Below, in pieces: positions 2,847 to 46,973 of a stretch of 64,000 bases of DNA (position 1 is its first letter; each line of letters opens with the position of its first letter). The notes beneath the pieces are model-generated. The model was given only the letters and a program-made list of their open reading frames with translations. It was not told the origin of the DNA and did not search any database. Source of the DNA: a bacterium (GTDB lineage: Bacteria > Patescibacteriota > Minisyncoccia > Phycocordibacterales > Phycocordibacteraceae). The position numbers and the translations under genes are program-made. The DNA lies in the NCBI GenBank assembly GCA_037200965.1, contig JBBCGK010000001.1:352001-416000 (forward strand), in the 5' to 3' direction.

Positions 2847-3383
2847 TTACGAGCCCGCGGCCAGCTGGCAAATCGTCCCGTCGCCGCCGACAGTCGAGGC
2901 CGTCGCGCCCCGCGCGCACGACTGGCTCGCGCCCGAAAGGATCCAGCTTATCTGGTAGGCGCGGCAGACAGAGCCTGTCACTTGTGTACAATTATAGGCA
3001 AATCCCAGCCACACAAGACTGCCGCCAAAGGTGACTTTGGGCCCGGCCGGAAGCCCCGGTATATAGGGCCTCAGCGCATCATCAAGCGCGGCGCTCTGCG
3101 TCGTCGGCGCAATATCCGTCCTTCCGCACTGGCCGCTCGGATAGGTCCCGAGGCAATGCGCGACCGTATCGCCCGGATACGGATACGAGCCCTGGTCCGT
3201 GAAATAGAGATTGATCGCATTTATATATTGCGTGATTTCCTGATTAGCGGAGGAATTCGTTCCTTTCGTGCGCGCGGAATTGAGCGCGACGAGCACGACT
3301 GCCGAGAGGATGCCGATAATGGCGATCACGACAAGGAGCTCGATAAGGGTAAAGCCGCGGGAACGAGAAGAAGGGATGATCAT
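2847..3383 (-). CDS. type IV pilin-like protein (prepilin with N-terminal cleavage/methylation motif)
   Basis: ATG at 3383 gives MIIPSSRSRG|FTLIELLVVIAIIGILSAVVLVALNSAR, the class III signal/pilin motif (G|FTLIELL). The ORF track extends further upstream on alternative starts; the internal ATG is preferred because it places the motif 10 aa from the N-terminus. C-terminal Cys pairs are present. Confidence 0.8.
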   Translation of the reverse strand: MIIPSSRSRGFTLIELLVVIAIIGILSAVVLVALNSARTKGTNSSANQEITQYINAINLYFTDQGSYPYPGDTVAHCLGTYPSGQCGRTDIAPTTQSAALDDALRPYIPGLPAGPKVTFGGSLVWLGFAYNCTQVTGSVCRAYQISWILSGASQSCARGATASTVGGDGTICQLAAGS

Positions 3384-3414: not shown

Positions 3415-4779
3415 CTATGAATTATCCGCAAGGAAGTCGATGTCCTGCTGGTATTTCGCGGCCTTTGCCACGACCGAGGCGCCATAGGCCGAAATCGCGC
3501 CGCCGGAGCACGCGCCGCCGGAATAGTAGCGGCAGGCAGCGTTTTGCTCGGCCGTATAGGTGCCGCCTGCGGCGCCCACGTCCTGGAGATAGAGCGCGGT
3601 CGCCATGATGGCGTGCTCGGCATTCCAGGGGTTCGTCGCAGGCACCCCGAGCGCCGCCTCGATGCGCCCCTCGAAGAGTTCCCAGGTCGACGGGATGAAC
3701 TGCGTCGGACCCATCGCGCCGCCGTACCCGCCCGGTTGCGGACACGAGACCGGTGTCGTCCGCCAGTCTTTCCCGAGGGCCGCCGTGATGCGGGCGAACG
3801 GCACGGTGTCGCGGGGCGCCTTCATGACGCCCGAGAACGGCGTCCCGGTGTTCTTCCCTTTCCCGTCCCCGGTCGTAAGGTCAGTCACAAGACAGTTCCC
3901 CACATTCGTCCCGAGCGCGGACTCCTGCGAGAGGATGGCGAGGATCATGGCGGCGCGCACCCCTGTCTTCGCCGCCGCCGTCTTCGCATAGACGACCGCG
4001 TCGCCAAACGGAATGGCGCCCGTATCCCTAAGCGGGAAAAGCGCGGCGCGTATCGCCGCGGCCTTCGCCTGCTTTGCGGCGAGCACCTCCTGGTACTGCG
4101 CTTCCTGATTCGTCGTTATCGCAAGGAGCTGCTGCTGCTCGGCTTCCTTGACCGCGATCTGCTGCTTGGTCGTCTCGACCGCGTACTTCGCGTCCTGCGT
4201 CGCGTTCTGCTTCTTTGCGAGCGCCTCGCGCTCGGCCTGCGTCTGCGCCTTCGTCACCTTGATATCGGAAAAGAGCGCCTGCATCTCGCGCTTTATGGAG
4301 ACGAACGCATCCACGTCCGCGAAGAAGGAAGAGATGTCCTCGTTTGCAAACGCGATCTCGGCAAGCGAGGAGTCGTCAAGCTGGCTCTCCTGCCGGAGCA
4401 TCCCCGCCAAAGACTCCTTTCCCGCTTCGATGCGGTTCGCGAGCGTGGTGATGGTCTTATTCTTCGAGGCTATCTCGCTCCCGAGCTGCTTGATGGTCAC
4501 CGTCTTTGCAGCAATCTGCGCCTGGGCCGCCTTGATCTGCGCGTCGAGCTGCGTGACGTTTCCCTTGAGCGTATTTTTCTTCGCCTGCGTCTCCGTGACT
4601 ATCTTCTGCTGCGCAGCAATCTCCACCTGAAGCTGGTCGTACTGCTTCTGGAGCTCGGCGCGCTCGGCGGGGGTAAGCTCCTGCGCAAGCGTCTGCGGCA
4701 CCCCTGCGCCGGAAACGGCAAGGAGCACTACCGGCAGCAGAAAAAGGGCGATAACAAAAAACACCGGGCTGCGTTTCAT
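3415..4779 (-). CDS. secreted coiled-coil protein with C-terminal SLT/MltB-like lytic transglycosylase domain
   Basis: Signal peptide from ATG 4779 (MKRSPVFFVIALFLLPVVLLAVSGAG). A long Q/A/K/E-rich heptad region (about 250 aa) follows. The C-terminal domain has an ES catalytic-type motif (LAILSQESALG) and MGPTQFIPSTW, as in lytic murein transglycosylases. The track start at 4812 is TTG. Confidence 0.7.
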   Translation of the reverse strand: MKRSPVFFVIALFLLPVVLLAVSGAGVPQTLAQELTPAERAELQKQYDQLQVEIAAQQKIVTETQAKKNTLKGNVTQLDAQIKAAQAQIAAKTVTIKQLGSEIASKNKTITTLANRIEAGKESLAGMLRQESQLDDSSLAEIAFANEDISSFFADVDAFVSIKREMQALFSDIKVTKAQTQAEREALAKKQNATQDAKYAVETTKQQIAVKEAEQQQLLAITTNQEAQYQEVLAAKQAKAAAIRAALFPLRDTGAIPFGDAVVYAKTAAAKTGVRAAMILAILSQESALGTNVGNCLVTDLTTGDGKGKNTGTPFSGVMKAPRDTVPFARITAALGKDWRTTPVSCPQPGGYGGAMGPTQFIPSTWELFEGRIEAALGVPATNPWNAEHAIMATALYLQDVGAAGGTYTAEQNAACRYYSGGACSGGAISAYGASVVAKAAKYQQDIDFLADNS

Positions 4780-4794
4780 CCTATCCAGTATACC

Positions 4795-4829
4795 AAAACT
4801 CCGGACCGGCAAAGCCAGTCCGGAGTTTT
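4795..4829 (-). terminator. hairpin downstream of rplY (12-bp stem aaaactccggac/gtccggagtttt, T-run on minus-strand transcript)
   Basis: Inverted repeat 4795-4806 / 4818-4829, followed by TTTTGG on the minus strand. Lies 17 nt downstream of the rplY stop. Confidence 0.45.
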
Positions 4830-7776: not shown

Positions 7777-8769
7777 CTAATGCAGCGTGCCGGTCGCGCG
7801 GCGTACGGCATCCTGTACGGAAGAGACGCCAAGGCCGTAGTGCTCGATAAGCTCGTCCGGCTCCCCTGATTGTCCGAACTGATCTTGCACCCCAAGCCGT
7901 TCTATACGAATCGGATGAACTTCGGAAAGATACTCCGCGATCGCGGAGCCGAACCCTCCCATAATCTGGTGCTCTTCGACCGTCACGATCGAAAGCACTT
8001 CTTTCGCGACCGCGAGCACCACCTCCTCGTCAAGCGGCTTGACCGTGGGCACATGGAGCACGATGGTGCCGATGCCCTCCGCCTCAAGCGCCCGCGCCGC
8101 CATGAGCGCGTTACAGCTCATCGAGCCGGTCGCCATGAGCGCGACTTTCGGTTTATCGCTTCGCCAGAGCCGTAGCGCCTTCCCTATCGCAAACGGCGTA
8201 TCGGAAGTCGTGAATACCGGAACATTCGAGCGCCCGAAGCGCAGATATACCGGCTTACCGAAAGCAGCCGCGGCAGTGGTCGCCTTCCGCGCTTCCTCGG
8301 CGTCGCCGGGAACGATAACGGTCATGTTGGGGAGCATTCGCATCATGCCGATGTCCTCGAGCATCTGGTGCGTCGCGCCATCGGGACCCACGGACACTCC
8401 CGCGTGCATGCCGCACACCACCACGTGCCGGTCGTTAAGTGCGATCGTCGTGCGTATCTGCTCATAGTTGCGGCCCGGGGAGAAGGCCGCGTAGCTTGTG
8501 ATAAACGGTATCTTTCCCGCGAGCGCGAGACCTGCCGCGAGCGTCGCCATACCCTGCTCGGCAATGCCCATCTCGATAAAGCGGCCGGGGAACTCCTTCT
8601 CGAAGGATTCCGCGCGCGTCGATTCCTTCAGATCGGCGGAGAGGACAACAATGTTCTTATTTTCCTTGCCCGCGGCGATCACGCCCGCGCCGAATCCGTC
8701 GCGCGTCGATTTCTTGTCGACCTTTGGATCGAACGGATTCTGGATCAGTCTCGCTTCAGGATTAAGCAT
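7777..8769 (-). CDS. tkt: transketolase, C-terminal section (pyrimidine-binding and C-terminal domains)
   Basis: GIAEQGMATLAAGLAL, PDGATHQ and GSxxxxAL motifs typical of the transketolase Pyr domain. Overlaps the upstream N-terminal-half gene by 8 nt. Confidence 0.85.
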   Translation of the reverse strand: MLNPEARLIQNPFDPKVDKKSTRDGFGAGVIAAGKENKNIVVLSADLKESTRAESFEKEFPGRFIEMGIAEQGMATLAAGLALAGKIPFITSYAAFSPGRNYEQIRTTIALNDRHVVVCGMHAGVSVGPDGATHQMLEDIGMMRMLPNMTVIVPGDAEEARKATTAAAAFGKPVYLRFGRSNVPVFTTSDTPFAIGKALRLWRSDKPKVALMATGSMSCNALMAARALEAEGIGTIVLHVPTVKPLDEEVVLAVAKEVLSIVTVEEHQIMGGFGSAIAEYLSEVHPIRIERLGVQDQFGQSGEPDELIEHYGLGVSSVQDAVRRATGTLH

Positions 8770-9634
8770 ATTCGTTCGGGAGCCTGCCGTTCATAGAGCG
8801 GATTTGCTTCAGGAATTCTTTCGCTTGTTCCGGGTTCGGGACTCCTTTGCCTACCGCCCCGCCGTGCCAGTGATAATCGAACTCTATCTCGGGGACCCCT
8901 TTGCCGGAAATTGTATGGGCGATGATAAGTGTCGGCTTCTCGTAGACAGCTTTTGCTTCCTCGACGGCGTCGACAAACTCGCGCACGTTATGGCCGTCAA
9001 CCTCGAGCACGTGCCAGTTGAACGCGCGGTACTTATCCGCGAGCGGCTCGAGCGGCATGATATCTTCCGTCATTCCGTCGATCTGTATGTTGTTCCTGTC
9101 TATGACAGCCGTAAGGTTATGGAGCTTGTTCTTGCCGATAAACATCGCGGCCTCCCAGATATTTCCTTCGTTCTGCTCTCCGTCGCCCATAAGGCAATAC
9201 ACGCGATTCTTTTTCCCATCCATCCGGAAAGCGTACGCAATGCCTGCCGCCTGCGAGAGCCCGGAACCCAAAGGCCCCGAAGTCGTCTCGAGCCCGGGAA
9301 GCCGGGCTCGTTCCGGATGTCCCTGGAGCCTGGAGCCGAACTTTCGAAGCGTCAGGCATTCGGATACGGGAAAATACCCCGCGTGCGCCATCGCGGCGTA
9401 GCGCACGGGAACGATATGCCCGTTTGAGAGTATGAGCCGGTCGCGCTCCTCCCAGTCGGGATTCTTCGGGTCGTGCTTCAGTACATGGAAATACAGGGCG
9501 GCGAAAATATCCGCCATGTCGAGCGGCCCGGCCGTGTGTCCGCTTCCCGCGGCGACGAGCATCTCGATGATCGTCTCGCGGATTCCGCGCGCCCGCGCTT
9601 CTATCGCCTGCACTTCCTCGTCGGTGAGAGCCAT
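8762..9634 (-). CDS. tkt: transketolase, N-terminal section (TPP-binding domain)
   Basis: GSGHTAGPLDMADIFAALYF, GHPE and LMGDGEQNEGNIWEA (TPP/Mg GDG motif). Split arrangement as in archaea and CPR. Confidence 0.85.
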   Translation of the reverse strand: MALTDEEVQAIEARARGIRETIIEMLVAAGSGHTAGPLDMADIFAALYFHVLKHDPKNPDWEERDRLILSNGHIVPVRYAAMAHAGYFPVSECLTLRKFGSRLQGHPERARLPGLETTSGPLGSGLSQAAGIAYAFRMDGKKNRVYCLMGDGEQNEGNIWEAAMFIGKNKLHNLTAVIDRNNIQIDGMTEDIMPLEPLADKYRAFNWHVLEVDGHNVREFVDAVEEAKAVYEKPTLIIAHTISGKGVPEIEFDYHWHGGAVGKGVPNPEQAKEFLKQIRSMNGRLPNEYA

Positions 9635-9676
9635 TGGTACAAGTATAACCCGCGGCGGCTCTCCCTCGCCCGGGAT

Positions 9677-10402
9677 TTATTCGTAAATGCCGTACTGGCC
9701 CGCGAGCTCCTCGAGCTCTCTGAGTTCACGCGCGAGATCGCCCGCCCCCCACAGGTCGGATCCGACGATGAGCCGCGAGACGCCCGCGGAAAGGAGCGCG
9801 GGGGCGGTCGCTTTGGAGACGCCGCCGTCTACCTGGACGGGCATATCGGGATGCCGCCTGCGGAACATCCGGATTTTCTGGAGCACTGCCGGTTCAAACG
9901 GCTGTCCCTGCCGGCCGATGGTATCGATGCCCATGAACTGCACGAAATCCGCATGCGGCAGATAAGGTTCTATGAGCGCGAGATCGGTTTTCGGAGTGAT
10001 GCCGATCCCGAGTTCAAGAAGGCCGGAGCTGAAGTCCTTGTCGTGCCCGTAGACATGCTCGAGGTTACGGAATACGGCGTCGAGGGGGCGAGCGGGATCG
10101 GCGTGGACGACGAGCCTTGAGGCGCCCGCCGCAAGCCACGTCCCGGCGGCGCGCGCGGGATCTTCCGTCATGAGATCGATCTCGAGCTTGAATTCCCCGC
10201 CGTGCGAAAGGCGCTCGCCGTGGTCCGCGAATTCCGCGAGTTCCGCGGCTCCTCCCCCGGTATAGGGCCAGGAGGCGGGAGACGCGAAATGCCCGTCGAC
10301 CGAGTCGATCTGCACGGAAGACACAAGGCCCGAGAGGCGCGAGAGCTTTTCTTCAAGATCCTCGCGCGAGATCGGCAGTATGGCAGGGACGACGACGCTC
10401 AT
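9677..10402 (-). CDS. rpe: ribulose-phosphate 3-epimerase-family protein (divergent)
   Basis: The ATG at 10402 gives MSVVVPAIL.... The motifs IDSVDGHF, MGIDTIGRQGQPF and VQVDGGVSKATAPALLSAGVSRLIVGSDLWG align by eye with the RPE TIM-barrel motifs. Two canonical His metal ligands appear substituted (Q and D). Confidence 0.65.
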   Translation of the reverse strand: MSVVVPAILPISREDLEEKLSRLSGLVSSVQIDSVDGHFASPASWPYTGGGAAELAEFADHGERLSHGGEFKLEIDLMTEDPARAAGTWLAAGASRLVVHADPARPLDAVFRNLEHVYGHDKDFSSGLLELGIGITPKTDLALIEPYLPHADFVQFMGIDTIGRQGQPFEPAVLQKIRMFRRRHPDMPVQVDGGVSKATAPALLSAGVSRLIVGSDLWGAGDLARELRELEELAGQYGIYE

Positions 10403-10436
10403 GCCTTCAGTATACCGCCTTGTCCCCGTCAGATTC

Positions 10437-10944
10437 TTAGAACATCGACCCGCCCGAAGAATACACGGCGCAGGCGGTCGCCGGACGCGTGGGATCCGCG
10501 AGACTCTTGATGATGGTCGCGCCATAGCACGCTTTCGATTTCGGGCAGTTATAGAAAAAGAGCTTATAATCCTTGCCGTCGGAACCGTACATATAGCAGC
10601 AGTTATTCCCCGCCGCGTTCAGGGAAGAATCGGTCGGAAGGCCGGGAATCGCCCCCGCTTGCGACAAGCCCCGGTATGACGTTGTTCGCGCTCACGCCAC
10701 CCCACGCGCTGCACTGGCTTACGTAATTCGACCCGCCGCCGGTCGACGGATAGCCGCCGGCGTTCGTCGCGTAGACCTCGAGCGCCTGCTCGACCGACCG
10801 GAGGTTGCTGACCCGCTGCGCGTCGTAGCCTTTTTCCCGGGCGGTGTTCAGGGATGCGACGACGACCGCGGAAAGTATGCCGATTATGGCAATGACGACG
10901 AGGAGCTCTATGAGCGTGAAGCCGCGGGGAGCGGTACGGTGCAT
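10437..10944 (-). pseudogene. type IV pilin-like gene interrupted by a frameshift in a G5/C5 homopolymer (about 10653-10657)
   Basis: Frame A (10603-10944) gives MHRTAPRG|FTLIELLVVIAIIGILSAVVVASLNTAR..., i.e. the prepilin motif. Frame B (10437-10667) continues a pilin-like Cys-rich C-terminus (NNCCYMYGSDGKDYKLFFYNCPKSKACYG). Deleting one G in the gggggc run joins them. Either a sequencing error or an authentic frameshift. Confidence 0.55.
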
Positions 10945-10962
10945 GGTCCCAGCGTAGCACGC

Positions 10963-11448
10963 CTAGAACTTCAAAAGGCGCCGCTTGTGCCGTTCATCCC
11001 CCGAAAACGAAGTGGTGAGGAACAGGTGCGCCGCCTCGGCCGCTTCCGAGCCGGAAAGGAAGCGCGCGCCAAGCGATAGGATGTTCGCGTCGTTATGCTC
11101 GCGTTCAAGGCGCACGATATCAAAGCCGTCGATTCCCGCCGTCTCCCGCGCGTCTGTGGCATGGACAGCGTTTTGCGGCCCGTAAAAAACGGCCGCGCGG
11201 ATGCCGGGCACCCGGTTTGCGGCCATCGCCTCGCCCTGGCCGCTGCCCCCGATGACGATGCCGAAGGATCCCGGCTCGTCCGCGACTCTCCTCGCGCAGG
11301 GCGTCACGTAGTCCGGATAGTCGTCGTCAGGTTCGAGGCTGTGGGCCCCGAGATCCTCGACCTCGTAGCCGATCGTACCTATATAGGAAGCAAGCGCGGC
11401 CTTGAGCGCGAAACCGGCATGATCGGCCGCGATATATACCTTATGCAT
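10963..11448 (-). CDS. rpiB: ribose-5-phosphate isomerase B
   Basis: MHKVYIAADHAGFALK... and GIVIGGSGQGEAMAANR are RpiB/LacAB family hallmarks. 8-nt overlap with gap. Confidence 0.85.
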   Translation of the reverse strand: MHKVYIAADHAGFALKAALASYIGTIGYEVEDLGAHSLEPDDDYPDYVTPCARRVADEPGSFGIVIGGSGQGEAMAANRVPGIRAAVFYGPQNAVHATDARETAGIDGFDIVRLEREHNDANILSLGARFLSGSEAAEAAHLFLTTSFSGDERHKRRLLKF

Positions 11449-12454
11449 TGCCGGCCTTAAGCACGTGGCGCACCAGGGACTCCGTATACCCCATTTCGTT
11501 ATCGTACCAGGCGAGGACTTTCACGAGGGTGCCGTCGACGACCCGGGTCATGCCGAGATCGGCGATCGAAGCGAACGGCTCGCCGACGATATCGCTTGAA
11601 ACGAGTTCTTCGTCGGTGGTCGTGAAAAGGCCGGCAAAGCGCGGATCGTCCGCTCCCTTTTTAAGCGCTGCATTCACTTCCTCGACCGTGGTCGGGCGTT
11701 TCGCGATGAAAGTGATGTCCGCGATGGAACCCGCGGATACCGGAACGCGAAGCGATATTCCGTCGAACTTCCCGGCAAGCGGCGCGTATGCCTGGGCGAC
11801 CGCGAGCGCCGCGCCGGTCGTCGTCGGGACGATATTCTGCGCCGCCGCGCGTCCTTCCTTCCGGTCTTTCCTCGACGGCCCGTCGACAAGCGACTGCGAC
11901 GCGGTATACGCGTGCGTGGTCGAAAGGATCGCTTTCTCGATGCCGACCGCCTCGTCGAGTATCGCCACCACCGGGCTCGCGGAATTCGTCGTGCAGGACG
12001 CATTGCTCGTGATGGGACAGGTCGCGAACTTTTCCTCGTTAAGGCCCATGAGCACCGTGGCGCCGAGGCCCGAAGCGTCGTCCTTGACCGGCGCCGTGAT
12101 GACGACGCGCTTCGCGCCCGCCGTGAGATGAGCGTTCGCTTTGCCGTAGTCCGTGAAGAAACCGGTCGCTTCGACGACAACATCGATCGCGAGATCCTTC
12201 CACGGGAGCATTGCCGGGTCTTTCTCGGAAAGGAAGCGCGCTTCCCTGCCGCCGATCCAGAGGCCGCCGTCTTTCACTTCCACCGTAAACGGCGCGCGCT
12301 TATACACCGTATCGAATTTGAGGAGGTATGCGAGATTGTCGAGGCTTCCGAGATCGTTCACCGCGACGATCTCGACTCCCCGTCCCCAGCTGCGGCGCAC
12401 GAATGCCCTGCCGATCCTGCCGAACCCGTTGATTGCTACGCGAATTGGTTTCAT
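11441..12454 (-). CDS. gap: glyceraldehyde-3-phosphate dehydrogenase (type I)
   Basis: INGFGRIGR NAD-binding motif and catalytic Cys region SNASCTTNS. Confidence 0.9.
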   Translation of the reverse strand: MKPIRVAINGFGRIGRAFVRRSWGRGVEIVAVNDLGSLDNLAYLLKFDTVYKRAPFTVEVKDGGLWIGGREARFLSEKDPAMLPWKDLAIDVVVEATGFFTDYGKANAHLTAGAKRVVITAPVKDDASGLGATVLMGLNEEKFATCPITSNASCTTNSASPVVAILDEAVGIEKAILSTTHAYTASQSLVDGPSRKDRKEGRAAAQNIVPTTTGAALAVAQAYAPLAGKFDGISLRVPVSAGSIADITFIAKRPTTVEEVNAALKKGADDPRFAGLFTTTDEELVSSDIVGEPFASIADLGMTRVVDGTLVKVLAWYDNEMGYTESLVRHVLKAGNA

Positions 12455-12485
12455 ATGAGGAATGGTATCACGGACGGTCTCCGGC

Positions 12486-15400
12486 TTAGGGCGCCGGTTC
12501 CGCTTCCGGACCAGGCGCGGGAGGCTCTTCCGGCGCCGGGCTTACGGGCGGCGCGATGACCGTAACGGCGCGCGAAGCGTGCGCTTCGTTTCCTGCCGCG
12601 TCCGCAACACGGTACGTGACCGTATAGCTTCCGGGTGTCGCGGTATCGACTGCGCCGTCTTTCGTGATGTCCGGCGTAAGGTCGCCGTCGCGATCGTCGG
12701 ACGCGCTTGCGCCCGGATCTTCCCAGACGGCCCCTTGAGCGAGATGCGTCTCGGCATCGCCCGCGAGCGTTATCACGGGCGCCAGCGTGTCGGGAGACGA
12801 CGCGCCCGCACCGCCATTGTTTCCTGTCGGAGGCGGCGGGATATCGGTTTCCGGGGTCCAATTCGCCGGGGAGGAGTCCCCCGCTTCGTCCTCTTCGCTT
12901 ATGACGGCAGCCGCGGTCGAGGTCGCGACCTGCCCTTTCGTCCCGACGATGAAGTAATCAAATGACACGTCGCTTTGCTGGGCTTTCTCGAGGCGTATGC
13001 GGAACGAGCCGTTCTTCTTGTCCGCGAGATACCATCCGCCGTTTACGGCTCCGGTAAAGGTCACGAATATTTTGTCCGACGGCGCGGCATACACGTTTTC
13101 GATTTCGACGGCCGTATTGCCCGCGAGGATCATGCCGGATCCCGCGGAGGAATTCCCCGCCGAATCCGCGGCCGCGACGAACCGGTCGGCAACGAGGGTG
13201 CCGAACTGCGCGATTCCCTCCCGGACGAACGCGCCGAAACCTTCGAGCGCCGACGCGAGCGTCGACGAGGCGAAAGTACCCGGAGCCGCATCCATGCCGA
13301 TCGAGCCGTCCTCGAGCCGTGCGATGCGGTCTTCGAGCGAATCCATGCGTGCGCCGATAGCCAGAAGCTCGGCGGAAATCGACTGCAGGCTTCCGAGGCT
13401 GTAGGTGGCGAGCTTGTACAGGTCGATGCCCGACGCGTCTTCCGTAAGCACCACTGACGGCAGGCTGGTGCTCGCGAAACCAAGGTTTGCCGCGACGGAC
13501 GCGAAGGATCCGGCCGGAAGCGCGAAGCCGTCGGCATATACCGTGCCCGAGATTCCGATATCGCCCGAGACAGAAAGCGCCCGGTTTGTCGCTCCGGTCC
13601 TGATGCCGATGTTCCCCGCCGCGTCGACGGCGAGCGCCGGGACGGTCGAGCTTGCGGCAGCGTTTCTGATAAAGCCGGTGCGTGCGTTGAGCGCGTTCAC
13701 CGCGGAAATAAGCGGCGAGACAAGTCCCGCGTAATTCACGGTGTAGTAGGTGCCGGTCACGCCGTTCAATTGCGTCTCAACGGTCCCGGTGAGCTGCGGG
13801 AACGCCTTCGCCACGTCCTGCGCGATGATGCCCACCTGCTGACCCTGGCTGAGCAACGGATCGCGCCAGTTATACGTTACGCCGCTTATGAGCGAGAGCT
13901 TCGAGAGCGCCTCTTCGCCCGTGATCGCCTCGATATTCTTCTTGAGGCGGGAGTCCGACGTACACGCCCCCGAACCGTTGATGACGCACGTACCGCCAGG
14001 ACCGCTGAATGTCGCGTTCCCGGCGTTGTCGACCTTGAAGAGCGTGGTCGTCGCGCTCGCGGTCGAAGAGCCGATGGCGAAGAGATTGTTGCCCGGATAG
14101 AGAGCGCCGTTGTTCGCATGCACCGCAAGGAGCGCGCCGGGCGTCGACGAGGCGATGCCGACTTTCCCGGCAAAGTAGTTCGTGTAGGCGTCGGCCTGAT
14201 AAATGGCGTAATTTCCGGAAGGAGCCGTGGCCGTGCCGAGCAGGAGTTCCGTGTTGTTCGTGCCGTTCGCAAGGCTCTCGACGTTGACGCCGATCGAGTT
14301 GGTGAGCGTGCCTGCGCCTATCGACGTATTTCGCTGCCAGAAGCCGCGGAAGTTCGTTATGAGGTTCCCGGTGTCTACCGAAGGGGCTTCGGAATGATAG
14401 TTGGAAGCATTGGTGGAAGTGGCGAGCGTGCCACTAACGGCGTTCTGGATCGTAAGACCGCTCATCTGATTCACTCCATAGCCGACGGAGGTATTTGAAA
14501 CGGTGATCCGGTTTCGGAGACCGCCGCCTTGCGCTCCGCCGGATACGTTATTGGCCAAGCCCGACCATACTACTTGCGTGTTAAGTCCTTGTATAGTTGC
14601 TGTCGCAGGTGTACTCGAGGCGTTCACCACCACAAAGAGACCGCGCATATTGATGTTTGCGCTCGTTGTTCCGACGAAGAGTGTGTCATTTGTGCCGGGC
14701 GCCGTGCCTTTCACGTTCGAAGTGCCGATGACCGAGTATGTGACAGCGCCACCATTGTCCGCATAGAGATTGCCGTGTACCTCGAGAGAGTTCGCGGGAG
14801 ACGTGGTGCCGATGCCGACATTGCCGTTCGCGAGTACCGTCATGAACGTACTTGTCGCCGTGCCGGCCGTCGTGGAAGCGATGGTAAACAGCGGGGTATT
14901 GGCCGGAGTGGAGACGGAGTTCGAGATGGAGAGGAGCGAATAGGGCGAAGTGGTACCGATGCCGACATTGCCCTGTACCAGGAGTCCGTTCGTCGGCGGC
15001 GCGATGCCGTAGCCGATATCGATGCCCGTGCCGCCAAGCATATGCAGGTTCCCGAGCGCGGATACTTGAAGCGCGGTCGTGGACGCAGTGGCCGTGGTGC
15101 TGCTTGCGATAACGAACAGCGGGATCGTACCGCCGCTTGCGCCGTTAACCGAAAGCCGCGCGAACGGACTCGTGCTGCCGATGGCGAAGTTGTTCGTCGC
15201 CACGTCGGCACGGGCTATCTCAACGTTGCTTTTGCCGTAAAGCTGGATGCTGTTTCCGTTCGAAGCATCAACCAAAAGTCGCAAAACACCACTCGAGGAG
15301 GAATTGGAGATGCCGAAGACGCTGTTGCTCGATCCGACCCATCGCGCATATGCCGTGCCGGAAGTGCCGTCGGTGCGTATAAAGTCTATGCCGTTGCTGT

Positions 15401-18400
15401 TGTTCCCCTGCTTCCCGACCTGGATGCTCCCGGCAACGCTTAAAATCGGCGAGCCCACTTGCGTGGTATAGGGAGCAGTCGTCGTACCGATCATCGTAAA
15501 GCCGCCTCCCGTTGCAAGATAGGTATTGCCCGTCGAAGTAAATTGCGTTGAAGATGCGTTAGCGCTGAATTGTTGTAGTCCGGTCCATGTATTGGGGTTC
15601 GCGACATTGAGCGAGGCGATGACCGCGCCGGTCGTCGGGGTGATAGTGAGCGTGCCGTCGACGTTCGAAACGGAAGTGACGCCGGTCGAGGAGGTCAGAT
15701 AGTCGGTGCCGGGCACCGCGTTTACGATATATCCGCCCGTTGACGCCTTCAGAATGCCCGAGTTGCCGGTGATGGCGAGATTGGGTATCGAGATCGGGCC
15801 CGCGAAGGTCGAAGTCGCCGACGTCGTGGCGATAAAGAACCCGGCGGTCGCGGAGTTACCAAGAAGCGACGCGCCTTCGATCGAAAGGCGCGCGCCGGGC
15901 GTACTCGTCCCCACCCCCACATTCCCGTTCAATATCGTCCTGGCAATGCCCGTGTTTCCGAGCGTGGCGGAGTTCGAGCCGTTGCCGACGGCGTTGTACC
16001 CGATGACGATCTCGTTCGCGCCGCCGGCGGCAAGCGGGAACGCGCCGTAGCCGAGGTAGGTGGAGTCGCTTGCGGTCTGGTTGGGGGTCGTCCCGTCGGC
16101 GATAAATCGGCCGGCTCCCATGCCGATGGCGGTGTTGTGGAATCCGCTGACGTTGGTCTGGAGCGCCGCGAGCCCGACGGCGGTGTTGTAGTAGCCGGTG
16201 GTGGTGAGGGCGAGCGCGCCCGCGCCGATCGCGGTGTTGTCGAGGCCGCTCGTGTTTGAGAACAGCGCGGAGTATCCGACCGCGGTGTTCGAGTCGCCTC
16301 CGGAATTGGCGGCAAGGGCGTTGGTGCCGATTCCCACGTTCCTGATCGCGGCAAAGAGGTGCCCCGGCAGGATGTTAGCCGGCGCCGCGGCGAGCGCACC
16401 CTGGCCGATGGCGATGTTGTCCGTAATGGTCGAGGTGGCGGACATCCACGCGGCGGCGGAAGACGCGCCAAGCGCGAGCGAGCTGTTCGTCGTGCTCGCG
16501 TAGAGGACGGTGTTCCCCGCCTGCTTGTATCCCGAATACTGGTCGGTGTTGACGAAGCCGGCGACGTCGAGCGGATAGGAGGGCGAGGCGTTCCCGATCC
16601 CGAGCCGCTTGTTCGTCTCATCCCAGAAGAAGTTCCGGGGGGCGGCGGACTGGGTGAGCTTCGTGCCGTCGGAGAAGACAACGCCGCCGTTGTAGAAGGT
16701 GGTGGTGCCGGTGCCGCCGTTTGGCACCGTGAGCATGCTGGCGAGGTTGAGGGTGTTTGCGGTGAGGGTGGTGCCGTCGAAGGTGAGGTTCGCGGAGTCG
16801 GTGAGGAGGCCCGCGGTGGTGGTATAGGGGACGCGGTTGGTCGTGAGATAGGTGTTGTACAGGCCGGAGGCGACGGAAAGCTGGGTGGTGGAGGCGTTGG
16901 GGAAAACGGAGGCGGTGGTGGTGGTCGAAGTAAAATAGGCGGCGACGGCCTGGCCGGCGACGGAGAGTTTCGCATAGGGGGAGGTGGTGCCGATGCCGAC
17001 GTTCCCGGCGTTCGTCACGTTAAGGAACATGGTCGAGGTGGTACCGAACCGGTTGGTCGAGGACGCGACCGCGAGGATAAAGGGCGTTATGGATCCGAAC
17101 GGATTCTGGACCGCGAGATTCGCGAAGGGGGTGGTGGTGCCGATGCCGACATTGCCTTCGGTGTAGTAGATGCTTTTGGTGGAGGTGGCGGAGTGCTGGA
17201 AGAAGGTCATCGCGCCGCCCGTGACGACGTTGGTCGCGGCGATGCGGCCCATGATCTGGTTGCCGTTCTGGTTGTAGTGGCCGAGGTCGTCCTCGATGTA
17301 GTTGAGGGAGGGATAATCGAGGTCGCTCGCGAAGACGATCCGCGTGTTGAAGTCGTTCGCGGCGACGTCTTCCTGCGCCGCGCGGACCTGCGACTGGCCG
17401 AGGTCGGACATGGTGAGGAGCGTGCCCGACCGGAAGATGTAGAACGGCATGTTCGCGCCGAAGCGGGCGCGATAGTTGGCGATCATGGTCTTGAGCGCGG
17501 CTTCGTAGCTTGCCTGGGAGACGCCCGGGGTGTTGTCGTTGATCGCCACGCCGTCCGTTCCTCCCTGGCCCCACAAGACGCCCTTGAACACCGGTGTATA
17601 GCCGGCCTGCCGGAAGGCGCCAAGCGCCGCGGTGGTGGTGCCGACGGACCCGCTGAAGAACTCTCCGGTCGTGTCCCAGGTGCCTTTGCAGTTGCCGTAG
17701 CAGGCTGCGGCGACCTGGGACGTCGAGCCGCGCGCGCCGTTGACGAACGCGACCCGGCGGCCGGTGGCGCGATAGTAGGTGAGGGCGAAGGATGCCCAGG
17801 CGCCGTCGTCGTTTGAGGTCCCGGCAAGGGAATCTTCGTTGAGAATCTGTCCGTGCCAGTACTGCATGACCTGGCCCAGGGGCGCGACGGGGGCGGTCTC
17901 GGCGTCCCCGGGGCCGAGCATGTTCGACTGCCCCGCGACGAGGAACACATCGACCTGGTTCCCGAGGCCGAGGTTGAACCAGCCGTCCGTGATGGGATTG
18001 CCGGCTGCGGTCGTGGTGCCGATGCCGGCTTTCGCATAGAGGTATGTGCCGTCGAAGGCGAAGGTGCCGGGGCTTGCGGGGGTGGTGGTGGGGGTGGAAC
18101 CAAGAGCAAGGAAACCGCCCACGGACAGCGTTGCGGATGGCGTGGTGCTGCCGATACCGAGCCTGCCATTAGCGTTATCCCAGAAGAGCGCCGACGAGGA
18201 TGTATTGGGCGCTTGCGTCAATTTCGTACCGTCGCTGAAGACGACACCCCCGTTATAAAAGGTGGTAGTGCCGGTGCCGCCAAAAGCTGCCGAAAGGGTC
18301 GAGGTCGCGGACACAAGACCATTGATAGCCTGAAGCGGACCCGTGAGCGAACCAATGGTAAGCGATGGCGTCGTGACGGTGCCGGTCGCGGAGATGGTGG

Positions 18401-21400
18401 TGGTGCCGGTCGCGCCGACCGCGAGCGTGTTTGCGGAGAAGTTGGTGGTGGATGCGTTTTGGATATTGAACTGGCTTGGAATGGAAAGCGTGATGTCGCC
18501 GGTTGAAGCGGAAGCGGTGATTTGATTCGGAGTGCCCGTTAGTGAAAGGACTCCGTTGTTGCTGATCGTCACGGCGCCGGTCGCGCCCGAAAGCCCGATG
18601 CCGAGATTCCCTTGCAAAAGCGACGTGACGCCGGTGTTGGTGATGGTAAGCCCGCTTCCGATGACCGACTGCCCTGCCGTGACCGAGATGCCGGTACCGT
18701 TTGAGACCGTGCCGGTCGCAACGTTCGCAAAGGTATTCGGTCCCGAGAAGTACGGTATGTTCCCAACCACTGCCGGGGTGGAAGTCGAAAGGCCGTTGAA
18801 GCTTATGGTATTGATCAAACGAACGAGCGGCCACGCAAAGGCAAGAGGCACTTCTGGCGTTGCGCCGGAAGAGGCCGCAGTGATGAGACCCTTTCCGTTC
18901 ACTGTGATGCTGGCGTTTGTAAAGGAGCCGACGTTGGCATTCACCGTCGCGAGCGTCGCGGCTGCGGAGCCCGGGCCGCTTGCAGTGACGTCCCCGGTGA
19001 GCGCGGTAATGTAATTCCCTGCCGCCTGCTTTCCGTTGAACGTACTCCAGTCGGTCGATGAGAGGAGCCCGCGATTGCTTGCGGATGCGGTCGGAAGATT
19101 GAAGGTGACCGTATTGCCCGAACCCGTGATCGAGAAGTCGGTTCCGCTCGTTGACGAGGCGAGCGTGAGTGCGCCGGTGATCGCGGAACCGAACTGCGGC
19201 GTGACCGAGGTGATGCCGCTCGCGGAGGTGAGATAGTCGGTTCCCGCAACCGCAGGGACCACATAGCCTCCTGCGCCGGTCTTGAGAAGATTCCCCGAGG
19301 CGATGTTGGTGATGGCGAGGTTGAGAGTCGAGAGCGGGCCTGCGAACGTACTGGTTGCGCTGGTCGTCGCGAGAAAGAACCCGGCACTCGCGAAATTGCC
19401 AAGAAGCGATGCCCCCTCGACGGCAAGGCGCGCGCCCGGGGTCGTCGTGCCGATCCCCACATTCCCCGTATTTTTGATTACCAGCCGCTGAACCGGCGTT
19501 GCCGATCCGTCCGGGGTCGTGAAGAATGAGAGGCGTCCCGGAGCGTCGCCGCCGGTAGCCGTTGCCGCGTCCGCTTCCGCAAGTATCTGCGCGTAGAGCT
19601 GCGACGAACCCGTGCTGTCGACGCCATAGAAGGCAACGGTGCCCAGATCGTCGTTATTGCTTATCTCCGTGCCGGAACCGCGGTATTTCTGGAAGCTTTG
19701 GACCGGACCCGAACTGTTTGCCGCCTGATAATAGAGGCTCTGCATGCTGCTATTTGTCGTCGAATACAGGCGCTGCAGGTATCCGCCCGCACCGACCGTG
19801 CCGGAACTGCCGACGGTCATATCGCCGACAACCGCGAGCGTCGCGGCGGGAACGACGGTGCCGATGCCGACGCTCCCGCCAAGAGTCGCGAAATACGCGC
19901 TTGAAGTTGCCGTCAGCTGCGACGTGGAGGCGTTGCCGAAGAATTGCTGGAGCTGCGACCAGTTATTCGCGGTAGTCGTGCCAAACGCAAGCGACACATT
20001 GTTCACCAAACGGACGAGAGGATAGGAGAACGTAAGCGGGTTTTCGAAATCGGTGCCGGGAGCGGCGTTCGTTATGTATCCTCCGGCCGATGCCTTGAGA
20101 AGACCTGAGTTCCCGGTAATCGCGAGGTTCGGTATAGAAAGCGGGCCGGCAAAGGTGGAAGTCGCGGAGGTGGTTGCGACGAAGAAGCCGGCAGTGGCCG
20201 AATTGCCGAGGAGCGACGCGCCCTCGACGGAAAGCCTCGCCCCCGGACTCGTCGTACCGATGCCGATGTTCCCTCCCGATACCGCAGAGCCGGTGCCGGT
20301 CACGCCGGTGCCGTAGATGAGGTTGCCGATGTTGAGCTGTCCCGAGAGCGTCGCGGACGGGAGCGAGATGTTGGTGCCGATGAGGATGTTCTGGCTGCCG
20401 GTGGTGAGGTTCGCGACGGCGGTCGAGGAGGTGGCGGCGCCGATGAGGATGTTGCCGGCGCCGGTCGTGACGTTGTACCCGGCCTGGGAGCCGAGGAAGG
20501 TGTTGAAGTCGGAGGCGTCGCCCAGGGAGTGGCCCGTGCGATAGCCGATATAGACGCCGTTCCTGTTGTTGAAGGAGCTGCCGGTATCAAGGACGAGGTT
20601 GCCGTTGCCGGCTTCGTACCCGATCGCGACGTTGCCGCCTATGGTCGACGAGGCGAATTCGAGGGCGGCCTTGCCGATCGCGACGTTGTTCGGGCTGTAG
20701 TAGCTCGAATAGAGGGCGCCGTCGCCGACGGAGACGTTCGAGCTGCCGCTGATGTTGTTCCACATGCTCTTGTACCCGACGGCGGTGTTGTAGAAGCCGT
20801 TGGCGGTGAAGCGGAGCGCCTTGTACCCGACGGCGGTGTTCTCCTCGCCGGTGTTTGCGGCGCCCGAGACCGTCGTGGTGCCGCCAAGCGCGTAGTATCC
20901 GAAGGCGGCGTTGTACGAGCCGGTGGTGTATTCGCGCATGGCGCCCTCGCCCGCGGCGGTGTTGTACGAGCCGGCGGTGTTGGACAGGAGGGTTTGATAG
21001 CCGAGGGCGGTGTTGTAGAAGCCGTTGTTGTTCGCGTTGAGGGCGTACCGGCCGAAGGCGGTGCTGCGGACGTCGCTTGCGGTTGTGGTCGCGTCGCCCC
21101 CGGCATTGAGGCCGAAGATGGTGGTTTCATTCGTCGTCGACGCATACCCAAGCAGGCGGTTGGCGATTTTGTATCCCGAGTATTGATCCGTATTGATGAA
21201 GCCGGCGACATCAAGGGGATTCGTGGGCGACACCGTATTGATGCCAAGCCTTCCGGCCCCGTTATTCCAGAAGAGGGCGCTTGCGGAGGTGTTGGGTGCC
21301 TGCGTGAGCTTCGTGCCGTCGGAGAAGACAACGCCGCCATTGTAGAAGGTGGTGGTCGCGGTGCCGCCGGAGGAAAGAGGCAGGGCGTTCGTAAGAGCAA

Positions 21401-24400
21401 GCGTGTTTGCGGTAAGCGTGGTGCCATTAAAGGTGAGGTTCGCGGAGTCGGTCAGAAGGCCGTTGGTTGTCGTGTATGGGACGCGGTTCGTGGTGAGATA
21501 GGTGTTGTACAGGCCGGAGGCGACGGAGGCGAGCGTGGTCGAGGCGTTCGGGAAAGTGGAGGCAATCGTGGTAGTGGCGGTGAAGAAGCCTGCGATCGCT
21601 TGGTTTCCAAGCGACGAGGAACCTTCGACGGAGAGGCGGTAGGCGGGAGTGGTGGAAGCTATACCGACGAAACCGGAGTTCATAATGACGAGTGCGCGCG
21701 TGCCGCTGCCGCCGGATGTCGCACCGTTGACATCGAACTCAAAACCAGGAACTACCGCGCTGGTATCTTGGTTCGTGAAATAGAATACTTTGGAACCGAA
21801 TCCTTGAATCTGATGCGCGCTGCCGTTCGACTGGTTGATGGAGATATACTGGCCCGGGGCTGCATTGCGAGTGACGCGCAAACCTTCGTTTGCCGCAGTT
21901 GCGTTGATGTCAAGCGGGGCGCTTGGCGTAAAGGTGCGAATACCTACGTATCCGTTGCCGTTCGCGCTGCCGACATACAGCGACGGAGTCGAGCTTCCGG
22001 CGGCGCCGACGACGAATGCGGGAGTCGTGGACCCCATGCCGACCGAGAGCTGAGCGAATGGCGAGGAAGTGCCGATGCCGGCATTGCCTTGTACCAACAA
22101 CCCGCTCACGGGAGGCGCAATACCGTAGCCGATGTCTATGCCGGCGCCCGCGAGCATATGCAGATTCCCAAGAGAGCTAACAACGAGCGCGGTCGAGGTG
22201 GCAAAACCCGCGGTCGAGGTCGAGAGAGCGAAGACGGGAGTTGTGCCGCCTGCGGTACCCGCAAGGGAGAGTTTCGCGTACGGAGAGGTAGTGCCGATGC
22301 CGAGTCTGCTGTTCGTCTTATCGAAGTAGAGTCCTCCCTGAGCGGATGCCTGCGAGAGTGTGCCGAGACCGGAGTCGTAGAACGTGACGCCGCCGTTGTA
22401 GAAGGTGGTGGTGCCGGTGCCGCCGCGGTCGACGGTGAGCGTGCCGGTGGTGTCGGAAAGTACGATGCCAAGCGAAGACGTGGCGGCAGCCGCGAGCGCG
22501 CCGTTGTTCCCGTATATAATCCCCGAAAGCGTTCCGAGGACCGGGTTGTTCGTAAACGTTTGTGTGCCGCCCCAGGTATTGCTTGTCGTGGTGCCAAATG
22601 CAAGCGATACGTTGTTCGTCAAGCGGACCAGCGGGTACGAGAATGTAAGAGGATTTTCGAAATCGGTGCCGGGGACTGCATGCTGGAAGTAACCGCCAGC
22701 GCCGACCTTCACGAGGCCGCTTGCCAAGTCGGTGACGGCAAGATTGAGCGTCGAGAGGGGCCCCGCGAAGGTCGAAGTCGCGCTCGTGGTCGCGATGAAG
22801 AAGCCGGCAGTCGCGTAATTGCCGAGCAGTGAGTGGCCTTCGACGGAGAGGCGCGCGCCGGGCGTCGTCGTCCCGATGCCCACATTGTTATTGAAATATG
22901 ATTTGCCGTGCACCTCGAAGATGCTCACGAGCGAGGAAGTCGCACTGTCGCCAATGATGACAACATCTGACGTGTCGGTTGGATAGATCGCGAGACTGTC
23001 CGACGTGGTCGCCCATGCGCCCGCCCCGCCCCCTCCTCCAGTCGTCTGGTCGACTCCCCACTGCGGCAATCCGCCGCCCGACACCTTAAGCACCTGGCCG
23101 GAAACACCGAGGGGCAGTGCCGTGAGATCGCCATTGCCGTCGGCATAAAGCAGGTCGCCCGGGTTGTATGACGCGATGCCTGTGCCGCCGTTTGCCTGGC
23201 CGAGCACGTTGGTTACGTCCGGGCTTCCAAGATCGACAGAGCCGGTTGAAAGAACGCCGGCGGTCGCGCGCAGGATACCGGTCAGCGCAGTATTTACAGT
23301 ACCCAGATTCGCGAGGGTCGTTATGTTCGGGAGCGTCGTGGTCGCGGTAAGCCGGTTATCGAAGAGCGTATTACTCCAATACTTGTTGACGGATCCTTGC
23401 GCTAGGGCATCGGTCGTCGTGGCGCTGAAGAAGTTGTAAAAGGGTACGCCGAAATTAGTAAGGTGGGTGGCGTCGAGATAGTAGCTTCCCTCCTGCCCGT
23501 CAAACGTGCCGGTCCAGTTGCCGGAGGCATCGGCAACGTAGTCGGTGCCAGGAACGGCATTTGCTACATAGCCGCCGGCTGCTGCCTTGAGAAGGCCGTT
23601 GTTCCCGGTAATCGCAAGCTGCGAAACGGAAAGCGGACCGGCGAAGGTAGAGGTCGCGCTCGTAGTGGCGGTGTAGTAATCGGCGACGACTTGGCCGGCG
23701 ACGGACAGTTTGGCGTACGGCGATGTGGTGCCGATACCGACATTTCCTCCGGTTGTCGCAAGATAGGTATTGCCGGTAGAGGTGAACTGCGTCGAGCTTG
23801 CGCCTGCATTGAACTGCTGGAGCGCAGTCCAGGTGTTGGGGTTCGCGAGGTTGATTCCGAGATTCCCGCCGGAAACCTGGAGCGTCGCATCATTATTTAA
23901 CGAAAGTGCGTATGGCGATGAGCCGAGGACGACCGGATCGGATGAGGAGAACGACAAAGCGCCGGAAGTGGTGATCGTTGTGGTCGCTGCGCTTGAAAGC
24001 GCGCCATTGTTTCCATATACAAGGCCTGAAAGCGCGCCGAGGATCGGACTATTCGTAAAGGTTTGTGTGCCGCCCCAGGTATTGCTCGTCGTGGTACCGA
24101 AGGCAAGCGACACATTGTTCGCCGAACGCACGAGCGGATAGGAAAACGTGAGCGGGTTTTCGAAGTCGGTGCCCGGTACTGCAACGGAAAGGACGCCCGC
24201 CGCGGCTTTCAAAACTCCCGTGAGTGAGGTCGACACGGTACCGAGGTTCGCGAGGGTCGTGATGTTCGGGAGCGTCGTGGTCGCGGTAAGCCGGTTATCG
24301 AAGAGCGTATTACTCCAGTATTTGTTAGTGGCACCTTCGGCAAGCGCGTCGGTCGTGGTCGCATGGAAGTAGGTGTAGAAAGAGGCGTCGAAAGAAGAGG

Positions 24401-26999: not shown

Positions 27000-27329
27000 G
27001 TCGGATAACCGAATTAACTACAGTTTATATGGACTTTCCGGAATAAACTCCAAATTGTATGTGGATAAGGAAAATAAGGTTTTCTGAATTACCGTATCCG
27101 CAATCACTAACAAAATGGTCGGGGCAAGTTGACGATAAATTGAGCACGCGAAGCATGGTTGGTATGAAAATTGTACCGACTTCTGCAACGAAAATTGCGT
27201 ATTTTAGAGGCCGAAAAAAATATAACCTTCGCCTACAGCGTAGTTTTGTAAGTTTTCTGCAATTAAATCACCTTAAACAACCGCATCAAACCAGTAATGC
27301 AACCTCGCTTATACGAGATATAATACCCT
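27000..27329. promoter_or_regulatory. 330-bp AT-rich (about 37% GC) non-coding region immediately upstream of the giant gene
   Basis: No ORF of 60 aa or more. Composition contrasts sharply with flanking 60-65% GC coding DNA. Likely promoter/regulatory region; individual promoter boxes not resolved. Confidence 0.45.
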
Positions 27330-28169
27330 TTATTTGTTAGTCTTTTCGTACTGCTCTGCTCCGTTTAGAAACTGTATGAGGTTCGCCTGTAAGCCATCGT
27401 TAGCTGCTATAAAATCGAGTTTGCCTGTACCGATTATCGCTATCAGTACCGCAATACCGGCTGCGGTTAGCATGAGCGAGCTCAGTACATAATGCCCTTT
27501 CTTAACCTCCTTACGCTTTGCTGGAGCAAGCTCGTGTCGTGTTTCCGAAACAATGTATGTGTCCACGGGCTCAAAATCGTTTCCTGAGGAGATTTGCTCT
27601 TCGTTCCGAGAGATATGTAAGGTTATCGATGTAGCCTCTTCTATAGGCTCTGGCGCGGCTACAGGCCCTTCTTCAAAGGTTTCCGGTTCTGAAATAGGGA
27701 CGTTTTGCGATTCCTGCGGCCCGACTCGATTAATAAACCAGTCTTGCCAGGCTGACTGTATGTCCTGAAGCGCGCTTTGAGTCTCTGCTGCGGGAATTTC
27801 ACGTACTTCTGTCTGCTCTGATTCTTCTGAAGAGAGGAGGTTTACGCCGGGACTTTCGGTTGGAACTTCAAAAATACTCGGTACTTCCTCACTACTATAG
27901 CGAGGTGAGCCCCAAGCGGGACTTGCAGCTTTTTCCAAACCGCTTTGTTCCTCCTTAGGTCCTTGTGCACCACTTGAAACCTCTGCCTGCTTCCCAAAAC
28001 GATGCTCGCGAATGGCGGATTCAAGAACGTACCAGCTGCGTCCAACAAGCGTTGCCGTCACCCTCCCTTCACGGGCAAGTTGACCGACATAATCCTTGGC
28101 ATATCCCGTAATTTCCGACGCTCGCTTAGACGAGATAAACGTCTGATTTCCTATAAGTAACTCATTCAT
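27330..28169 (-). CDS. HTH-domain membrane protein (279 aa): N-terminal excisionase/MerR-type HTH, acidic disordered linker, C-terminal TM helix; paralogous to the giant-protein N-terminus
   Basis: ATG at 28169 gives MNELLIGNQTFISSKRASEITGYAKDYVGQLAREGRVTATLVGRSWYVLESAIREH. This shares ISxKxA...GYxxDY...L...G...VGRxWxV with the giant protein. TM at GHYVLSSLMLTAAGIAVLIAIIGTG. About 50% GC, lower than its neighbours. Confidence 0.7.
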   Translation of the reverse strand: MNELLIGNQTFISSKRASEITGYAKDYVGQLAREGRVTATLVGRSWYVLESAIREHRFGKQAEVSSGAQGPKEEQSGLEKAASPAWGSPRYSSEEVPSIFEVPTESPGVNLLSSEESEQTEVREIPAAETQSALQDIQSAWQDWFINRVGPQESQNVPISEPETFEEGPVAAPEPIEEATSITLHISRNEEQISSGNDFEPVDTYIVSETRHELAPAKRKEVKKGHYVLSSLMLTAAGIAVLIAIIGTGKLDFIAANDGLQANLIQFLNGAEQYEKTNK

Positions 28170-28257
28170 GCACTTAGTATATAGGTATCTCGTCCCGTAT
28201 AGAAGAGGTTGTACACAAGCACCGAAAAAGCTGAAAATCCATCCGAATTTAGAGTCT

Positions 28258-46335: not shown

Positions 46336-46869
46336 CTACAGGAATGCGATGAAACCCAGTAAACCAAGTCCTACCGCGAGAAGGATGAAGGTTGGAACCA
46401 CACTGAAATTAATATAGCGTCTCTCAGATTTCCTTAGCTCGTCAACAGACTCAAACTGCTGTAGTTTCGGATTCAGAATATTTTTCCTTGAATATACATA
46501 CCTGCCCCGATTCCATGATAGACGTCTCCCATGTCTAAATGTAAAGATGATTGCAAAGAGCGATGCAAGAAACATTGCCAGAGTTAAAAGACCGAAAAAC
46601 AGAGTCCATATACCTTCAAAACCATCTGTATTGATTAGCTTATCCGTCACTTCAAAATAAAGGTAGGTTATGACATATACAATGAGTATGTCAGGCAGCT
46701 TCCTTAGTGAGATATATGCTATGTATCCGTACCCAAAGGGAGAGATGGTCCATCCTTTAATATATTTCAGATCATTATCTGAAAGCTGATTCTCATTTCT
46801 TACCTGCTTTCTTTCAAACCATGTAAAGCTTGACAGGTATTCGCGAGTCTCCTTAAATCCAAATTTCAT
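46336..46869 (-). CDS. hypothetical membrane protein (177 aa, 2 TM) in AT-rich island downstream of RHS toxin
   Basis: About 33% GC. Hydrophobic helices LPDILIVYVITYLYF and IWTLFFGLLTLAMFLASLFAIIFTF plus FILLAVGLGLLGFIAFL. Candidate orphan immunity protein. Confidence 0.45.
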   Translation of the reverse strand: MKFGFKETREYLSSFTWFERKQVRNENQLSDNDLKYIKGWTISPFGYGYIAYISLRKLPDILIVYVITYLYFEVTDKLINTDGFEGIWTLFFGLLTLAMFLASLFAIIFTFRHGRRLSWNRGRYVYSRKNILNPKLQQFESVDELRKSERRYINFSVVPTFILLAVGLGLLGFIAFL

Positions 46870-46973
46870 AACCTGCTTAAATTCACTTCACTATAATAAA
46901 TCCTTGTCAGGATTAATTCCGCTAAGATTAATTTCCTCTAGGTCAATCTGAAAAGCTCTTGCTTGCTGTTGCA

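Follow-up and report, generated by a model that had tools for sequence, protein, structure and literature searches.

A one-base frameshift at a G5 run splits a type IV prepilin gene in a Patescibacteria sugar-metabolism cluster, probably as a young null allele

Frameshift pseudogenes of reduced symbiont genomes carry a single indel at a short homopolymer, have intact orthologues in relatives and belong to multi-copy families with variable copy number. Geobacter PilA-N/PilA-C exemplifies a functional two-gene split pilin. In phase-variable surface genes such as Neisseria pilC, the poly-G genes of Campylobacter and Bordetella fim/bvgS, a frameshift at a G run lies in a surface-fibre gene. Contingency loci of C. 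jejuni are defined, in one account, by tracts of at least 7 G/C (PMC4965091), and a screen in high-GC Bordetella finds that the only over-represented C/G runs are those longer than 8, and cites the C6 of bvgS as phase-variable (PMC1891110). Type IV pili are described as mediating host attachment in cultivated CPR bacteria in two reports on these organisms (PMC9894109, PMC11623550). Among the type IV pilins and the pseudopilins of type II secretion, an uncharacterised family of Patescibacteria pilins of about 165-175 aa shows a G/FTLIELL start (the slash marks the cleavage site), Glu at +5, a long alpha-1 helix, conserved cysteines and a four-stranded head.

The locus described here shares features with several of these. 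It lies in a window of 64,000 nucleotides (the whole stretch of DNA that was analysed, positions 352,001 to 416,000 of contig JBBCGK010000001.1, assembly GCA_037200965.1), whose host is a member of the Patescibacteria (CPR; Paceibacteria/Parcubacteria-like). A prepilin gene of the uncharacterised family is interrupted there at a run of five G (G5). As in the pseudogenes of reduced symbiont genomes, the lesion is a single indel at a short homopolymer, relatives carry intact orthologues and the family is multi-copy with variable copy number. Unlike ordinary symbiont pseudogenes, however, the case appears very young, with neither a second lesion nor a clear loss of conservation downstream, and the gene is part of a housekeeping cluster that is tightly packed and apparently co-transcribed. 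The G-run frameshift in a surface-fibre gene likewise recalls phase-variable genes, but here the tract is only 5 nt long, is not polymorphic in three assemblies, is not conserved in homologues and is not over-represented.

On the minus strand, the ATG at 10944 starts a 113-codon ORF ending at 10603, in which frame 0 reads MHRTAPRGFTLIELLVVIAIIGILS... and the last 16 residues, GDSRPSDRFFPERGGE, are out of frame. The +1 frame is open from about 10680 to a stop at 10437-10439 and reads ...AIPGLPTDSSLNAAGNNCCYMYGSDGKDYKLFFYNCPKSKACYGATIIKSLADPTRPATACAVYSSGGSMF. The GGGGG (minus sense) is the sole G/C run of five or more within the pilin gene; removal of one G gives a 168-aa ORF, and addition of two G gives one of 169 aa. 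As the sequence stands, the reading frame shifts after residue 97 and frame-0 translation stops 16 codons on. The cysteine-bearing C-terminal head has no uninterrupted ORF, and C115, C116, C133, C139 and C158 (numbered in the repaired protein) are found only in the +1 frame. The preliminary description of this DNA had proposed a prepilin gene between rpiB and rpe whose N-terminus and C-terminal part are in different frames and can be joined by removing one G. Sequence and profile matches bear out the gene and its position, the frames are as it described, and the homologue alignment supports a one-base frameshift at G5. The run itself is where it was expected to within one base, at 10652-10656 rather than 10653-10657. 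The coordinates of the locus and its neighbours are collected in Table 1.

Table 1. Features of the split prepilin locus and its surroundings (positions in the window)
Feature	Position	Strand	Evidence
Type IV prepilin gene, frameshifted (pseudogene or null allele)	10437-10944	-	sequence, homologue alignment, repaired-protein fold
Frame-0 ORF, 113 aa: leader, alpha-1 helix, first beta strand, out-of-frame tail	10603-10944	-	
Class III (prepilin) leader peptide MHRTAPRG	10921-10944	-	sequence and profile matches
G5 homopolymer (CCCCC on + strand), frameshift site	10652-10656	-	sequence, alignment, three assemblies
C-terminal two-fifths of pilin head domain, +1 frame	10437-10651	-	sequence, alignment, AlphaFold2
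rpiB (LacAB_rpiB), upstream neighbour	10963-11448	-	Pfam labels on identical locus L001
rpe (ribulose-phosphate 3-epimerase), downstream neighbour	9677-10402	-	sequence and Pfam labels
tktN	8762-9634	-	
tktC	7777-8769	-	
gap	11441-12454	-	
Giant Peptidase_S74/Ig-like protein	12486-26999	-	

The N-terminus of the protein carries a prepilin motif, the leader MHRTAPRG being followed by FTLIELLVVIAIIGILS. This assignment is supported by matches to N_methyl (PF07963; E 5.5e-9, 35.7 bits, above the gathering score of 21.2) and to TIGR02532 (37.3 bits against a cut-off of 16.3), and the N_methyl and IV_pilin_GFxxxE profile matches span residues 7-28. Cleavage and N-methylation are predicted to occur before F9, which would make Glu13 the +5 residue of the mature pilin; F9, T10, L11, I12 and E13 are invariant across the family alignment. 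With the frame repaired, the protein takes the alpha-beta roll of pilins, a long N-terminal helix on an antiparallel sheet, and AlphaFold2 places the later strands at residues 116-121, 126-131 and 157-161. The stranded +1-frame part thus holds three of the four beta strands together with the conserved cysteines listed above. The fold resembles those of CFA/III pilin, Thermus PilA4, EpsG and C. difficile PilA1. A specific pilin subtype is not assignable, because the protein scores under the cut-offs of the GspG, ComGC and PilA equivalog models.

A search of 5.8 billion protein clusters with the repaired protein matches thousands of pilins. The best full-length matches are proteins of 160-186 aa from Patescibacteria/Paceibacteria/Parcubacteria MAGs that cover 93-100% of the query and are 47-61% identical to it by BLASTP. 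We aligned 20 sequences, namely the repaired protein and 19 intact homologues. The repaired protein is collinear with the homologues from end to end (aligned over 96-100% of length) and keeps the family residue in each of the 33 invariant columns, C115, C133 and C158 among them, as well as in the near-invariant ones. Intact members of the family are 52-59% identical to it in this alignment. The join itself is ungapped, the window's ...IPGLVASG-AIPGLPTDS standing against the consensus IPGLVxxGYIPxLPxDP with LVASGAIPGLPTDSSLNAAGNNCCYMYGSDGK as the peptide across the join, and this places the frameshift at the G run, to one codon. Judged from its sequence, the window gene is a new, broken member of the uncharacterised CPR pilin family, which differs from the intact members in being cut after residue 97 by a one-base insertion, with loss of most of the head domain.

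The two IPGL motifs on either side of the join had been taken for a short duplication flanking the site. This repetition exists at the amino-acid level only: both are ancestral motifs, conserved in every homologue (IPGLV..GYIPxLPxDP), and their codons differ, being ATACCGGGGCTT in one and ATTCCCGGCCTT in the other. The DNA on either side of the G5 site shows no direct repeat. Because a DNA-level repeat is lacking and both motifs are ancestral, we rejected the duplication as a substrate for slippage.

Intact versions of the gene exist in relatives, one of them in the same gene order. In the relative L091, the order giant protein-gap-rpiB-pilin-rpe-tktN-tktC-pfkB-aldolase is that of the window, and the pilin (P0026) is an intact protein of 174 aa that is 55% identical to the repaired window pilin in the alignment. 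P0004, P0007, P0013 and P0016 are also intact and within the same cluster, and the homologues P0017 and P0002 are located outside it. The intact positional orthologues in L091 (P0026), L083 (P0004), L092 (P0013), L085 and L090 give the locus the synteny of a frameshift pseudogene. In L083, the intact pilin stands directly upstream of a fused rpe-tktN. We further note that this fusion joins rpe to the transketolase N-terminal half in a 541-aa product (4533-6158 of L083, GCA_018970465.1).

Other relatives carry more pilins. In L085/L086, L090 and L092, four to five pilin genes stand singly between gap, rpiB, rpe, tktN and tktC, and an unannotated ORF of 77-99 aa lies ahead of many of them. The window has the minimal arrangement, with one pilin, which is broken, and without the small ORF. 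The number of pilins per cluster ranges from 1 to 5 among relatives, a spread that agrees with birth-and-death evolution of the family, under which some losses are to be expected. Within the window, 18 nt separate the rpiB stop from the pilin ATG and 34 nt separate the original pilin stop from the rpe start. These short spacers, together with the finding of no promoter-like site in a scan of 9600-12600, suggest that the pilin gene is co-transcribed with the surrounding cluster. Terminator-like sites in 9600-12600 number 7 against 2.6 expected and are uninformative; a weak site of this kind lies on the minus strand inside the pilin 3' end (10483-10466). In the relatives, the pilin-threaded gap-rpiB-rpe-tkt cluster stands downstream of the giant Peptidase_S74/Ig-like protein. 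The giant ORF of 4837 aa, which has Peptidase_S74 and bacterial surface Ig-like domains by the labels on L001, is intact in the window and broken in GCA_015655515.1.

The same break in three assemblies, with the gene whole in relatives, points to ordinary recent inactivation rather than a switch as the most likely history. We conclude that a genuine and evolutionarily recent frameshift has probably turned this type IV pilin gene into a null allele, effectively a newly formed pseudogene. Its ancestor would have been a gene for a pilin of about 168 aa, occupying a conserved 'pilin slot' flanked by rpiB and rpe, and in it a short G run presumably grew by one base, from G4 to G5, through ordinary replication slippage. 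This would have moved the frame after residue 97 and left the 113-aa product. That product retains the prepilin leader, the hydrophobic alpha-1 helix and a single strand. Three of the four head strands are missing from it, as is every conserved disulfide cysteine of the C-terminal part, and it would be unable to form a normal pilin subunit. Since no clear extra decay is seen downstream, the event appears to be recent. Indeed, the downstream +1 frame has no second lesion, and identity to homologues in the C-part, divided by that in the N-part, comes to 0.83, which falls within the 0.78-1.02 of intact homologues. The loss may have been tolerated through other pilin genes, one more of which lies in the window. 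The undecayed state of the downstream part also counts against a null allele, because the same picture would result from an assembly error or from a reversible switch.

For this reason, an artefact of sequencing or assembly stays the main rival to a genuine null allele. It would mean that the true genome has G4 (or G7) and an intact gene, the extra G being a homopolymer miscall in the consensus. We consider this unlikely, although the shift falls exactly at a homopolymer and the +1 frame downstream is pristine. A DNA alignment shows one and the same G5 in the window, GCA_015655515.1 (L001) and the Logan assembly of SRR28211700 (L002), which a different pipeline built from k-mers of the raw run, and this concordance makes a sequencing error less likely, even though the three assemblies are possibly not independent datasets. 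The truncated 113-aa protein is found in the public collection as two versions. One is P0121 (MEJ0053526.1, 'MAG: type II secretion system protein'), identical to the window version and carried by a 960-kb contig and by the 8.2-kb Logan contig of SRR28211700; the other, P0001, comes from a 15.7-kb contig of GCA_015655515.1.

Identity to the window is 100% over 8.2 kb for the Logan contig and 99.95% over 12.3 kb for L001, which has five SNPs (window 10648, 10617, 9759, 9449 and 9205) and one homopolymer indel. All five SNPs are nonsynonymous transversions; three fall in rpe and tktN, and two lie shortly 3' of G5. The indel, C5 in L001 (near its position 300) against C6 in the window at 16637-16642, breaks the L001 copy of the giant gene. 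Given that every substitution is a nonsynonymous transversion and that the giant gene is broken, L001 probably departs from the window through assembly noise in one population and not through divergence. The SNPs beside G5 were dropped as evidence of relaxed selection, since all five resemble assembly noise. The same C6/C5 mismatch lends some weight to an artefact, because at least one of the two assemblies must have a homopolymer-length discrepancy at another site.

Searches for an allele of another length point the same way as the assemblies. The G4-repaired, G7-repaired and L001-type repaired proteins have no exact match among about 15 billion proteins, and the nearest other relative is only 60% identical. 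Two scans of the JGI metagenome contig set, in which the species is absent, returned no match, one with exact flanks and a variable tract and the other with a degenerate pattern for NNCCYMYGSDGKDYK. A scan of genome contigs with the family alignment returned at least 600 stretches, generic for FTLIELLVV and mostly from unrelated phyla, with no close orthologues among the matches listed. The frameshift is carried by every copy of the gene found.

The window itself also speaks against an error. Of its 60 G/C runs of at least five bases, 21 fall within the unbroken 4837-codon ORF, and about 60 such runs other than the one in the pilin gene leave all other long ORFs whole, including those for proteins of 4837 and 2669 aa. 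Greedy tiling of ORFs gives dense coding with no second evident split gene, and GatB, Obg, SecA, MurB and the 2669-aa RHS protein are all intact. Long intact ORFs despite many G/C runs indicate that the assembly is not prone to homopolymer errors. Systematic errors of long reads mostly shorten homopolymers, so that the simplest repair, to G4, would require an insertion error.

Slipped-strand phase variation, which the preliminary description had raised, fares less well. The G run would then be a reversible ON/OFF switch of a surface pilin, with the sampled population OFF. The protein is surface-exposed, the shift lies at a homopolymer, the downstream frame is undecayed, the switching of C6 in Bordetella bvgS demonstrates that short tracts can be phase-variable, and host attachment via type IV pili in cultivated CPR bacteria makes ON/OFF control biologically plausible. 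However, G5 is below the length of recognised contingency tracts (usually at least 7 G/C, the shortest cited being C6). The tract has the same length in three assemblies, which are consensus sequences and blind to minority alleles, and the exact protein look-up and the two metagenome scans (of a contig set in which the species is absent) yield no allele of other length. The tract is also not maintained in homologues: the seven whose DNA was inspected all lack a G run there, and their codons at the site include TCC GGC GGG TAC, GCT GGT GGA TAC and CCA GGG TAT. Finally, G5 is depleted in the window rather than enriched, at 70 G5/C5 runs against 154 +/- 16 expected from dinucleotide-preserving shuffles, or about half, which suggests that the genome avoids such runs. 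We therefore regard phase variation as quite unlikely. As an observation on the genome at large, the depletion of G5/C5 across the window is consistent with selection against G/C homopolymers.

A more specific form of this idea, in which G5 would be a low-rate switch of the sole pilin in the 'pilin slot' of the carbon cluster and would vary the host-attachment fibre of an episymbiont, seems to us a little less probable again. To our knowledge, no phase-variable locus is known in Patescibacteria/CPR. If such a switch did operate here, Patescibacteria would gain their first described contingency locus, one whose tract is unusually short, and the locus would matter more if G4/G5 heterogeneity were present at the read level.

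Under programmed recoding, either a +1 frameshift (re-pairing of tRNA-Gly on GGG-G) or transcriptional slippage would give some full-length pilin. On GGG GGC, a tRNA that decodes GGG could indeed re-pair perfectly in the +1 frame, which is open and conserved, but the shift site is not conserved: all 19 aligned homologues are single ORFs, and the site codons inspected are not slippery. In frame 0 the next codon is GGC, which is used more than any other glycine codon (62.8 per thousand) and thus offers no slow A-site codon, and stop and rare codons are absent from the shift site. A stretch of 116 nt that includes the site and lies mostly downstream of the run (10560-10675) folds like shuffled sequence (z = 0.06). 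By A-site codon and fold, no frameshift-stimulating signal was found around G5. A run of five bases is too short for efficient transcriptional slippage. These observations make recoding very improbable.

Hardly credible at all is a split pilin, in which the 113-aa N-terminal product would associate with a separately translated 76-aa C-terminal product from a TTG at 10667: the TTG-start ORF (10437-10667) does span the C-terminal part, but it has no signal or prepilin sequence, no Pfam match and no convincing ribosome-binding site, its exact product is uncalled in any public assembly, the break would separate strand 1 of the head domain from strands 2-4, and none of the 19 aligned homologues is split.

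Taken at face value, a young null allele is a minor event, affecting one of several pilins in a reduced CPR genome through a common type of mutation. For annotation, the two fragments are best entered as a single pseudogene instead of the 113-aa 'type II secretion system protein' of the public record. More intriguing than the broken gene is the conserved interspersion of pilin genes among gap, rpiB, rpe and tkt, which may bear on the co-expression of attachment and sugar metabolism in Patescibacteria. A recent preprint describes a different CPR pilus operon that is co-localised with ATP-synthase genes (10.64898/2026.03.03.709456).

Several other features of the window deserve mention. A second, intact prepilin gene lies at 2847-3383 on the minus strand (MIIPSSRSRG/FTLIELL...) and adjoins genes for an 881-aa secreted repeat protein (147-2792) and a 465-aa coiled-coil protein (3415-4812). 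The minus strand at 47547-55556 encodes the 2669-aa protein, with SpvB, FG-GAP, RHS-repeat and Rha78A-like Ig domains, an architecture like that of polymorphic toxins or Tc toxins, in a genome of about 1 Mb. ORFs at 27059-28313 and 46336-47309 have no Pfam match and an unusually low third-position GC of 0.29-0.45, against about 0.7 elsewhere, and these may be foreign DNA or non-coding.
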